Shown here in pieces: positions 29,013 through 31,583 of a stretch of 32,000 nucleotides of DNA. The notes beneath the pieces are model-generated. The model made no database searches. It saw only the letters and a list, made by a program, of their open reading frames with translations, and had not been told where the DNA came from. The position numbers were made by a program, and so were the translations under genes. The DNA comes from Pasteurella multocida (GTDB lineage Bacteria; Pseudomonadota; Gammaproteobacteria; Enterobacterales; Pasteurellaceae), in contig NZ_LT906458.1 of NCBI RefSeq assembly GCF_900187275.1, positions 1,800,001-1,832,000 on the forward strand. The letters run 5' to 3'. The stretch's first letter is position 1, and every line of letters begins with the position of its first letter.

Positions 29013-30029
29013 TTATTGTTTTTTCTCCATACCTAAAACACCCCAGTACTGCTCAGTACTACCTTGGCCGACAAGATATTTGTTTTTTTCACCATTTGTA
29101 CTATTGATGAAATGTAAGTCCATTTGGAAACGATGAGGTGATGTGGCTCCTTTTGTTAGTCTTGTTCCCGAATTAGGTAAATATTCTACAGTAGGAAAAA
29201 TTTCTACTTTACGAGGATTATTATCAAATCCAGTAATCTGAAACAATTTTTCATTCCAATGTTTAGCCAATATTTCACCATCCACTCTACCATTGTTATA
29301 TGTTAAGAATGCTCTTGCAACAGTAGGTACATTTGGAGTATCTATACTAGAGAACCAAAATTGACCTTCATAAGTCGCATTAAATTTTTGAAGGTTATCA
29401 AAATTTTCAGCTTCTTTTTTGAAAGCATAAGTATATTTATTTTCTATTCTGTTCATATCTTGAGTATCACGATAAAAACCATAATAGACATTGTCATCTA
29501 GTAAATTAAAAATATAGCTTGGTGCATTTTTATTGTCTTGATTTATGCCTAGATTAAGTTTGATATAACTAATTTCTTTTTTAAGAATCAATTTTTGATC
29601 GCTATAATCTGCATCTGGATTTGCGATTAATTCGTATGTAAATACAGCATCTTTATTATAAGAATCTTTTACTGGATTAGTTGATGTTTCTAAAAGTGTT
29701 TTGTTTACTTCGGGAATCAGAACTGGCACTTTAACAGGTTCGGCTGGTAAAGTAGCCGTTATTTGCGCTGTCGGCACGGGATTTTGTTTAGGCGCAGTAT
29801 CAATAGTCGGAGCGAGTGAGGGCGCTTTAATTGGTGTAGTTGGTGAAGTTACCACTGTTTGTATTGTTAGCGCTGGTTTTTCTGCTACTTTTTGTGCTTG
29901 TGGTATAGTTACGGTACGTTTTTCCATAGGAGAGTGAGATGGATTGTTATTACCCCCACCACCACTACAAGCGGTAATCAGAAGAGAACAAAAAACAGGG
30001 AGAGATTTTTTGATGTCAAAATACTGCAT
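29013..30029 (-). CDS. TbpB-fold surface lipoprotein, putative Slam substrate, ligand unknown
   Basis: Lipobox LLITAC followed by SGGGGNNN, then a ~85-aa Pro/Thr/Ala/Val-rich tether and a C-terminal domain. That domain carries the motif series [33 protein letters not shown] and [11 protein letters not shown]-end, which parallels the 8-stranded barrel of TbpB/HpuA/fHbp-type lipoproteins. AAGGAA SD. Confidence 0.75.
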
Positions 30030-30053
30030 GACAATTCCTTTTAAATAAAATGG

Positions 30054-31583
30054 TTAAAATGTTTTACTGAAGGTTAAATAAATCCGATTCCGGTCATATT
30101 CGGAAAAAGGATTGTTACTGGTGGTTTTTTGATATGCCCAAGTGATTTTAGGCGTGATCCCCAACCAGTGAAGACTACGATGCCAAATCGTAAAATTGAC
30201 ACCGTATTCGCGATTTTTTTGCACAACTTTAAAGAAACTCGGCGCGAAAATCATATTCTTTTCTGCTGAAGGTGCTCGATAAGTACGCGTGGCATAGCTT
30301 GTTTGTAAACGCGTTGAAATGCCTTTCGGCCATTCTTGCCCCCAACCTAGACGTATTCCTTGACGTTCAAAAGCATAGGCTTTTAGCCGGGTATTTTTTT
30401 GATAATAATCGAATCCAACAAACCAAAATTGTTGGCTATTTGGCATATATATCAGAGTATTGCTAATGGAATAGCTATTTCCATTTGAGCTTTGCCGTTG
30501 AGGTTGGATATAACGTTGTTCGGTATATTCCAGAACCGTGGAGATTTTCCAATTGGGTGTCAACCAATAATCCACGTCAAGGTTGATACCTGAGCTTTTA
30601 GAATAACGGTGTAATGTACGTGCATCCTTTGTTGCATTTTCACCGCCCACATACCAAAATTGTTCCACGAAAGGTATAAGTTTCACTTCTGTTTTGGCAT
30701 TACGGTAACCACCACCTAGATTGAGGCGAGTCGAAAACTCATCATACTTATGATTATCCCAATAATATTTTCCATTGATATCGGCACTAAATTCTGTGAA
30801 AAAGCCGTGGGCTAATGACCAATTTTTACTTAAATTAATAAAATAACTTAAACCATGTGCTTTTTCTGGTTGGCTTGAAGGGGTGAAGCCTTCCGCTTTG
30901 GTGCCTTTAGGCGGTGCATTATTGACATTGTTCTCATGCAAATAATTTACTCCGCCATACACATTCCAGCTATCGCGTTGGTTAATCGCATCAATATAGC
31001 TATCAATGAGGGTCAGTAAAGGCGCGGGTAAGTTTTCTGAACGCAGTTGGTTAAATTGTGCTTTCGCGGCTTCATTTTCACGGTTTTGCGTTAAGGCGAT
31101 AGCGAGTTGTAAGCGTGCAGGTTGTAAATTGGGCTTTTCTGCAATAATTTGGCGATATAAACGTACTGATTCACTTAATTTTCCTTGTTTACGAGCAACC
31201 ATTGCCTGTGCCCATTTTAATAACAGCGGATCAGGCGATTGTTGGGCATAAATGGGTAACAGAATTTCCGCACCGCGCATATCATTATTTTTTAATGCCG
31301 GGATTAAGGCGCGAAGCACCAAATCAGGTCTGCTAGCAAGTTGTTCAATGGTCAACGAAATTTGCTGACTGCTCGCACTTGATGTGGGTTCAGTCGGTTT
31401 CGGTTTCTGAGAAAAGAGATGCTGTTTAGGTGACGTCTGGGAAAATGTTTCATCTGGTCGGCTATTATCTACGGGGATCACAGTATTCGCCCACGCGGTG
31501 TTATAAATAACGCCAGAGAGAAAAACAAGGCGACCGAAAAAAGGTAAAAAAGTAAGCGGTTTTAAGTTTATCATTAAGTTCAT
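30054..31583 (-). CDS. Surface lipoprotein assembly modifier (Slam, DUF560) family outer-membrane protein
   Basis: 509 aa with signal peptide ...NTAWA/NT. The N-terminal part is helical and TPR-like (LRALIPALKNNDMRGAEILLPIYAQ...LYRQIIAEKPNLQPARLQLAIAL). The C-terminal ~300 aa is rich in alternating aromatic beta-strand patterns and ends ...RIYLTFSKTF (OMP C-terminal Phe). It lies directly upstream of a TbpB-like lipoprotein gene. Confidence 0.8.
   Translation of the reverse strand: MNLMINLKPLTFLPFFGRLVFLSGVIYNTAWANTVIPVDNSRPDETFSQTSPKQHLFSQKPKPTEPTSSASSQQISLTIEQLASRPDLVLRALIPALKNNDMRGAEILLPIYAQQSPDPLLLKWAQAMVARKQGKLSESVRLYRQIIAEKPNLQPARLQLAIALTQNRENEAAKAQFNQLRSENLPAPLLTLIDSYIDAINQRDSWNVYGGVNYLHENNVNNAPPKGTKAEGFTPSSQPEKAHGLSYFINLSKNWSLAHGFFTEFSADINGKYYWDNHKYDEFSTRLNLGGGYRNAKTEVKLIPFVEQFWYVGGENATKDARTLHRYSKSSGINLDVDYWLTPNWKISTVLEYTEQRYIQPQRQSSNGNSYSISNTLIYMPNSQQFWFVGFDYYQKNTRLKAYAFERQGIRLGWGQEWPKGISTRLQTSYATRTYRAPSAEKNMIFAPSFFKVVQKNREYGVNFTIWHRSLHWLGITPKITWAYQKTTSNNPFSEYDRNRIYLTFSKTF

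Follow-up and report, generated by a model that had tools for sequence, protein, structure and literature searches.

The Slam-lipoprotein gene pair of a Pasteurella multocida chromosome is very probably the known PmSlam/PmSLP-1 (fIbp) locus

What does a surface lipoprotein bind when its gene lies beside a Slam gene and no receptor gene adjoins the pair? The question is raised by two minus-strand genes in a stretch of 32,000 nucleotides (nt) of Pasteurella multocida DNA (contig NZ_LT906458.1, positions 1,800,001 to 1,832,000; hereafter the window), which encode a Slam protein of 509 amino acids (aa) and, downstream of it, a surface lipoprotein (SLP) of 338 aa. An initial annotation, made from the sequence alone, had taken the two for a Slam-substrate pair whose cargo had no assigned ligand. 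The pair is real, but the statement about its ligand is out of date, as residues 35-338 of the lipoprotein are 100% identical to chain B of the PDB entry 9B3H, a protein that binds complement factor I (PMC12080921). Here, we report that the locus is almost certainly the known P. multocida PmSlam/PmSLP-1 (fIbp) pair, probably arranged as one operon. The pair has already been characterised and no new identity is proposed for it; the small additions made here are the borders of the segment that differs between alleles, the deletion mechanism behind the truncated form PmSLP-1.2 and an apparent revertant of that form.

The identity of the lipoprotein is carried by its match to solved proteins. In a sequence search of the PDB, 9B3H chain B, deposited as 'Pasteurella multocida factor I binding protein, fIbp', was matched with an E-value of 3e-205, and 9B3E chain A, the crystallised construct deposited as 'surface lipoprotein, PmSLP-1', was matched over 222 residues (E 3.6e-150) with identity over residues 115-335. 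The same two entries were the top Foldseek matches in the PDB for an AlphaFold2 (AF2) model built from an 11-sequence homologue alignment, with target TM-scores (TMt) of 0.93-0.94 and root-mean-square deviations of 1.8-1.9 Å (0.94 and 1.8 Å for 9B3E). Residues 1-122 of the model were disordered, having a predicted local distance difference test score (pLDDT) below 50, and residues 123-338 folded as six plus eight beta strands, in agreement with the handle and eight-stranded barrel expected earlier. The handle strands span residues 128-136, 148-157, 161-164, 173-178, 181-189 and 195-203, and the eight barrel strands lie between residues 217 and 336 with a pLDDT of about 90. This barrel is the proposed module for recognition by Slam.

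The N-terminal part is that of a surface-tethered lipoprotein. The lipobox ITAC occupies residues 18-21 behind a hydrophobic region with a mean hydropathy of 2.19, and Cys21 is followed by SGGGGNNN; both Cys21 and the GGGG are invariant in 11 homologues. The Pro/Thr-rich residues 22-122 contain 15.8% Pro, 14.9% Thr and not a single aromatic residue. The lipobox Cys, the GGGG-NNN stretch and the low-complexity tether of the earlier description were thus all recovered, and the protein would probably undergo signal-peptide cleavage, lipidation and a Lol-type delivery to the outer membrane. No Pfam family was matched at E-values up to 1 and no relevant NCBIfam family was found, including the TbpB barrel and fHbp (GNA1870) models. 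Following the two PmSLP-1 structures, the next Foldseek matches were C-lobes of TbpB (5kkx, E 3e-6, TMt 0.51), intact TbpBs, fHbp and the hemophilin of Acinetobacter baumannii, at sequence identities of 9-15%. The former assignment of a TbpB-fold cargo holds for the fold class and fails for the profile families: the lipoprotein belongs to the TbpB-like fold class and not to the TbpB or fHbp sequence families. Its exact sequence was present on 290 contigs of P. multocida under the name 'hypothetical protein'. PmSLP-1 still carries this label in NCBI and UniRef and is without a Pfam or NCBIfam model, which is why a reader of the sequence alone saw the lipoprotein as unassigned.

The upstream product was described before as having a signal peptide, a region resembling tetratricopeptide repeats (TPR) and a barrel-like half ending in Phe, and each of these parts was confirmed. 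Residues 206-509 match the whole of PF04575, SlipAM/DUF560, in Pfam (profile positions 1-288 of 288, E 2.9e-113, 378.6 bits), and residues 75-177 match the whole of PF24575, TPR_Slam (positions 1-104 of 104, E 6e-34), by which the reading as a Slam-substrate pair is borne out. The N-terminus is hydrophobic and ends in AWA at residues 30-32, after which the signal peptide is probably cleaved. The C-terminus reads LTFSKTF, and its terminal Phe fits an outer-membrane beta-signal as judged by inspection. In a single-sequence AF2 model, residues 79-201 form helical repeats with pLDDT values of 70-88. NCBI lists the exact sequence for P. multocida under the name 'TPR repeat-containing protein NMB0313 precursor', and members of its cluster that are almost identical and 506 aa long go by the name 'surface lipoprotein assembly modifier'. 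The start of the protein varies between records, being given as 509 aa or as 506 aa from Met4 (the 506-aa form is frequent in NCBI), and one record labels the exact sequence 'chromosomal replication initiation protein'. Over the compared part, the slam gene of the window is nucleotide-identical to those of two loci of the PmSLP-1 type (L010 and L012).

The coordinates of the two genes and of the features discussed below are collected in Table 1. The 24-nt gap and the shared terminator that had been noted between and behind the genes were both found. The spacing suggests that slam and pmSLP-1 are co-transcribed. The terminator-like hairpin past the stop codon of the lipoprotein gene has a folding energy of -10.3 kcal/mol (z = -3.76), and 0 of 200 shuffled sequences folded as well; one mismatch in the stem kept it from being called in a consensus terminator scan. 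A promoter scan gave no convincing promoter for slam. The exact Slam and SLP sequences are both present in many P. multocida genomes, and this, together with the match to PmSLP-1, identifies the window as coming from a P. multocida strain with the PmSLP-1 allele. Compared with the system published for bovine serogroup A P. multocida (9B3E, 9B3H; PMC12080921), the window pair is the same thing: the gene order of slam followed by pmSLP, the lipobox, the tether, the handle and the barrel all match, and nothing of substance differs. The allele is the long PmSLP-1.1 and not the truncated PmSLP-1.2.

Table 1. Features of the slam-pmSLP-1 locus and its surroundings (window coordinates unless a comparison locus is named)
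Feature	Position	Strand	Basis or remark
slam (PmSlam, orthologue of PM1515), 509 aa	30054..31583	-	open reading frame (ORF); Pfam SlipAM and TPR_Slam
Slam signal peptide coding region, residues 1-32, MNLMINLKPLTFLPFFGRLVFLSGVIYNTAWA with N following	31488..31583	-	hydrophobic core
Slam periplasmic TPR domain, residues 75-177	31053..31361	-	PF24575
Slam DUF560/SlipAM outer-membrane barrel domain, residues 206-509	30057..30968	-	PF04575
Intergenic spacer, 24 nt, CCATTTTATTTAAAAGGAATTGTC	30030..30053	-	Shine-Dalgarno sequence AAGGA, 7 nt upstream of the SLP start codon
pmSLP-1 (long form PmSLP-1.1 = fIbp), surface lipoprotein, 338 aa	29013..30029	-	ORF; identity to PDB 9B3H_B and 9B3E_A
Lipoprotein signal peptide and lipobox, residues 1-21, ...LLITAC	29967..30029	-	regular expression
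Disordered Pro/Thr/Val/Ala-rich tether ('anchoring peptide'), residues 22-122	29664..29966	-	composition, pLDDT
Handle domain, about residues 123-205, six beta strands	29415..29663	-	AF2; crystal structure description
Eight-stranded beta-barrel domain, about residues 217-338	29016..29381	-	AF2, Foldseek
Indel hotspot ATTGGCTAAACATTGG, residues 253-258, barrel hairpin turn, 16 nt	29256..29271	-	simulation; DNA alignment
Allele-specific variable segment, mature SLP coding region and 3' end	28987..29952	-	conserved flank restarts only at 28920 in two of three comparisons
Terminator-like hairpin followed by U-rich sequence	~28978-29005	-	directly 3' of the SLP stop codon
rsmD-like methyltransferase, upstream of slam	31633-31989		window ends inside rsmD
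trmL-like SpoU methylase, downstream of SLP	28442-28930
DUF535 gene	27499-28368	opposite
engB	26771-27427
comM	25134-26663
TonB-dependent heme/hemoglobin-type receptor, 853 aa	22070-24631	-	Plug and barrel domains
335-346-aa genes upstream of rsmD	L001 5873-6913; L007 737-1744; L009 1-500, 738-1745		no Pfam match

The function of the pair is known from published work. The Slam gene PM1515 adjoins the lipoprotein gene PM1514 in all sequenced P. multocida strains, and surface display of PM1514 in Escherichia coli needs PM1515, a requirement documented both by flow cytometry and by fractionation of the membranes (Hooda et al. 2017, PMC5449769). Four PmSLP variants have been defined (Islam et al. 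2023, PMC10075479), between which antibody cross-reactivity was not found (PMC5449769; PMC10075479). PmSLP-1 is present in 85.5% of isolates from bovine respiratory disease (BRD) and is a protective vaccine antigen in cattle (PMC10075479). Its ligand, structure and mechanism have also been published (Nguyen et al. 2025, PMC12080921). In that study the Slam-PmSLP-1 operon of strain 36950 was cloned and proteinase K sensitivity was found to be Slam-dependent, and the crystal structure at 2.0 Å revealed a six-strand handle and an eight-strand barrel. From the serum of cattle, sheep and goats PmSLP-1 pulls down complement factor I, with a dissociation constant of about 27 nM for one construct and without any effect of tether removal on binding. 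In the cryo-electron microscopy complex at 3.5 Å it touches the factor I light chain, and a loop of the handle domain sits at the interface in the published structure. C3b and C4b are cleaved cofactor-independently in the presence of PmSLP-1, E. coli becomes serum-resistant only when Slam and PmSLP-1 are both expressed, and the authors call PmSLP-1 the first bacterial protein shown to activate complement factor I without host cofactors (PMC12080921). The co-expression in E. coli, proteinase K shaving, flow cytometry and serum pull-down that the initial annotation had proposed have all been published already (PMC5449769, PMC12080921). For a related variant, a 2025 TraDIS study, in which transposon insertion sites were sequenced, found that PmSLP-3 and its Slam matter for the in vivo fitness of a type B strain; ligands for PmSLP variants other than PmSLP-1 were not found in the literature consulted.

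These data suggest the following route. Slam would be exported by Sec and reside in the outer membrane, its DUF560 domain forming the barrel and its TPR domain lying in the periplasm. PmSLP-1 would be synthesised with the signal peptide of a lipoprotein and receive its lipid at Cys21. After its delivery to the outer membrane, transfer to the cell surface would depend on Slam. Once there, a disordered tether of about 100 residues would hold out the domain composed of the handle and the eight-stranded barrel, and this folded domain would bind ruminant factor I at its serine-protease light chain, with an affinity in the nanomolar range, and stabilise the catalytic domain of factor I. Bound factor I may then cleave C3b and C4b without factor H or C4BP, with the result that all three complement pathways would be shut down at the bacterial surface. 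In this account the domain content, lipobox, fold, identity to the solved protein, gene order and synteny were computed for the window, and Slam dependence, factor I binding, cleavage of C3b and C4b and serum resistance are taken from the literature. PmSLP-1 would presumably have the same role in native P. multocida. Of the two functions formerly suggested for the cargo, host-factor binding for immune evasion stands, with factor I as the factor, and the hemophore-like alternative does not. Nothing in the present analysis contradicts the PmSlam/PmSLP-1 explanation.

Several points weigh against this identification or limit its reach. Since the lipoprotein has no Pfam or NCBIfam match, it is placed in its family by structure and by its identity with the solved protein. 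Residues 203-509 of Slam had a pLDDT below 50 in the single-sequence AF2 model, in which the strands of the expected 14-strand barrel could not be counted, and it could not be confirmed that the window Slam is the exact sequence used in the published experiments. The -35 element in the slam promoter region appeared weak by eye, and no more than 49 nt separate slam from rsmD. Finally, the functional data come from recombinant protein and from gain of function in E. coli, a deletion of PmSLP-1 in P. multocida not being among the authors' tests (PMC12080921), and no such knockout was reported in the literature found.

The alternative that survives best would extend the PmSlam/PmSLP-1 explanation and does not replace it. 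Slam may serve several clients, of which PmSLP-1 is one and PlpE/PlpD-type lipoproteins encoded upstream of rsmD are others, making this a multi-cargo locus, and we consider the odds on this to be even. The Slam cluster in question has been noted to include PlpD (PM1517) and PlpE (PM1518) (Hooda et al. 2017, PMC5449769), and according to the TraDIS paper P. multocida strains encode at least two SLPs exported by a Slam. The related loci contain one or two genes of 335-346 aa without Pfam match upstream of rsmD, whose position makes them probable PlpE/PlpD-type lipoprotein genes, and the product of the L001 gene is weakly similar to the window SLP (28% over 234 aa, E 3e-6), a similarity which suggests that the two are distant paralogues. 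On the other hand, Slam dependence of PlpE or PlpD was not found in the literature consulted, and in the present case any such genes lie beyond the edge of the window, which ends inside rsmD.

The loci used for comparison were obtained in two ways. A contig scan with Slam as the query gave Bisgaard Taxon 45, Bisgaard Taxon 46, Pasteurella sp. and Moraxella. P. multocida was absent from its results, and the P. multocida loci were taken from contigs that encode the proteins. In Bisgaard Taxon 46 (L004 9608-10347), two minus-strand ORFs of 108 aa occupy the slot between slam and trmL and look by eye like a HigB/HigA-type toxin-antitoxin pair. No SLP was detected in this slot by tblastn, and the Bisgaard Taxon 46 Slam is therefore without adjacent cargo. 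Another match came from a contig labelled Streptomyces cinereus JCM 3040 (L006 8001-9287), encoding a Slam 32% identical to the query with a score about that of the Moraxella osloensis match. Since an outer-membrane Slam is not to be expected in a Gram-positive genome, this assembly is probably contaminated.

The neighbourhood of the pair bears on a second alternative. It was correctly remarked before that no TonB receptor gene is adjacent: the flanking genes are rsmD-like and trmL-like, and the nearest TonB-dependent receptor gene lies 4.4 kb away, past trmL, DUF535, engB and comM. The order rsmD-slam-SLP-trmL-DUF535-engB-comM is shared by Bisgaard Taxon 45 and by P. multocida strains whose SLP alleles differ from that of the window, and an SLP gene adjoins slam in L001, L003 and L007-L012. 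The best NCBIfam match of the 853-aa receptor was TonB-hemin (2e-62, below the cutoff of the model), and a Fur-like site with 15 of 19 matches, GATAATCATTATC exactly, lies upstream of its gene at 24699-24717. Upstream of slam the best Fur-like box had 11 of 19 matches against a shuffle mean of 10.8, which is chance level. The lack of both an adjacent receptor and a Fur-like box upstream of slam fits a function unrelated to iron. That the lipoprotein is nevertheless an accessory of iron or heme acquisition, hemophore-like or TbpB-like, serving a TonB-dependent receptor elsewhere such as this one, could be argued from the fold class that it has in common with TbpB, HpuA and hemophilin, from the location of the receptor gene downstream on the same strand, and from the occurrence of such receptors in 120 of 185 Slam clusters surveyed (PMC5449769). 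This is very improbable, since four unrelated housekeeping genes, one of them on the opposite strand, separate the lipoprotein from the receptor, which has a Fur-like site of its own while slam has none above chance, and since the lipoprotein is so remote in sequence from TbpB, fHbp and hemophilin (9-15% identity, as above). Moreover, serum pull-down gave factor I with PmSLP-1 only and not with TbpB or empty-resin controls, and the structure of the PmSLP-1-factor I complex has been solved (PMC12080921). The pull-down and the complex structure largely refute an iron-acquisition role, and it was rejected. There is next to no chance that the 509-aa protein is instead a PgaA/BcsC-type TPR porin for polysaccharide export that adjoins a lipoprotein gene by coincidence, a reading which could draw on a weak NCBIfam PgaA match in the TPR region (E 0.0017, 16.6 bits against a cutoff of 366) and which was rejected as ruled out by the full-length SlipAM match (288/288, 378.6 bits) and the match to a Slam-specific TPR model, there being also no pga or bcs genes nearby and Slam-dependent display having been published.

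Two further features were observed in the window. A complete rRNA operon (16S, tRNA-Ile(GAT), tRNA-Ala(TGC), 23S and 5S) at 3707-9034 accounts for the high-GC block in the composition profile. A 228-aa ORF at 21277-21963 on the plus strand had no Pfam match at the threshold used; its counterpart in related loci is marked as PF26367 (DUF8095).

As a PmSlam/PmSLP-1 pair, the locus can be compared with other systems of surface lipoproteins. The Neisseria meningitidis Slam1-fHbp system also has a Slam-dependent, single-lobe lipoprotein with a handle and an eight-strand barrel by which a complement regulator is hijacked. Structures of fHbp were matched by the SLP model at E 5.6e-4 and weaker in Foldseek, at about 10% identity. 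The fHbp gene is not known to lie beside its Slam gene. The ligands differ in that fHbp binds factor H, whereas PmSLP-1 binds factor I, a protease that is activated directly without cofactors (PMC12080921). The TbpB-TbpA, LbpB-LbpA and HpuA-HpuB systems have the fold class of the cargo and export by Slam in common with PmSLP-1. Unlike tbpBA, lbpBA and hpuAB, the operon of the window is without a partner TonB-dependent receptor, a Fur-like box and an iron-carrier ligand, and unlike TbpB the lipoprotein has one lobe rather than two and no match to the Pfam TbpB families. The same strategy of binding factor I and enhancing the cleavage of C3b and C4b is found in ClfA of Staphylococcus aureus and CipA of A. 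baumannii (PMC12080921). These two proteins are unrelated to PmSLP-1, and CipA has been proposed to work with host cofactors, in contrast to PmSLP-1 and ClfA, which act as surrogate cofactors (PMC12080921).

Within P. multocida, PM1515/PM1514 of strain Pm70 and the other PmSLP alleles occupy the same chromosomal slot in synteny (PMC5449769, PMC10075479). By blastn, the window was compared with three P. multocida loci that harbour other alleles (L007-L009). A conserved flank, 92-98% identical, extends from window position 32000 down to 29953, 29927 or 29876 and takes in rsmD and slam, reaching 77-154 nt into the lipoprotein gene over the part that encodes the signal peptide, lipobox and GGGG. 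A downstream flank, 98-99% identical, runs from 28986 or 28920 to 25100, and there is little or no nucleotide match between the flanks. The Slam proteins of these strains are 94-97% identical to that of the window and the mature SLPs only 33-46%. In the part coding for the folded domain the GC content is as low as 0.303, whereas the sequence on either side has about 0.40. The sharp borders of the variable segment and this low GC content suggest that SLP alleles may be replaced by recombination in the conserved flanks.

PmSLP-1 itself varies at one position in particular. Within the PmSLP-1 90% cluster a common split form consists of a 255-aa piece ending in GEILE (195 contigs) and a second ORF of 85-89 aa, so that truncated and intact PmSLP-1 stand at 195 versus 290 contigs in the collection searched. 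This split form is PmSLP-1.2, which has been reported before in 14 of 86 cluster-1 sequences (PMC10075479). It corresponds to an 11-nt deletion between ATTGG direct repeats at window positions 29271..29256: simulation of the deletion on the window sequence reproduces the sequences P0013 and P0014 exactly, and the deletion is seen in the DNA of a carrier genome (L011 2237-2268). Five of the eight barrel strands are lost by it. Three different indels were found by DNA alignment at this hotspot, in L011, L010 and L012. The 336-aa variant of L010 has the PmSLP-1.2 sequence plus a 5-nt tandem duplication of GAAAT, and is probably a frame-restoring second-site revertant of PmSLP-1.2, as read from the sequence. 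The 335-aa variant of L012 differs from the long form by a single in-frame 9-nt deletion. Neither L010 nor L012 otherwise differs from the window over the compared stretch of about 3.9 kb. Phase variation at the hotspot was considered and rejected, since the loss of 11 nt between direct repeats of 5 nt does not amount to a reversible switch in a repeat tract; in the G-run of the SGGGG codons no length variants were found among the cluster members examined.

A segment that can be replaced, a truncating deletion that is common, an apparent revertant and an independent in-frame deletion could together reflect ongoing and opposing selection on the pmSLP slot in cattle-associated P. multocida, an interpretation that we put forward tentatively and hold to be somewhat doubtful. 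If true, the factor I binder would be lost and regained in the field, which would bear on escape from, and the coverage of, vaccines based on PmSLP-1. PmSLP-1, a virulence factor, is also one of the leading vaccine antigens against bovine respiratory disease. The variation between alleles at this locus, comprising the truncated form, the indels in the barrel turn and the replacement of the whole segment, could matter for vaccine coverage.

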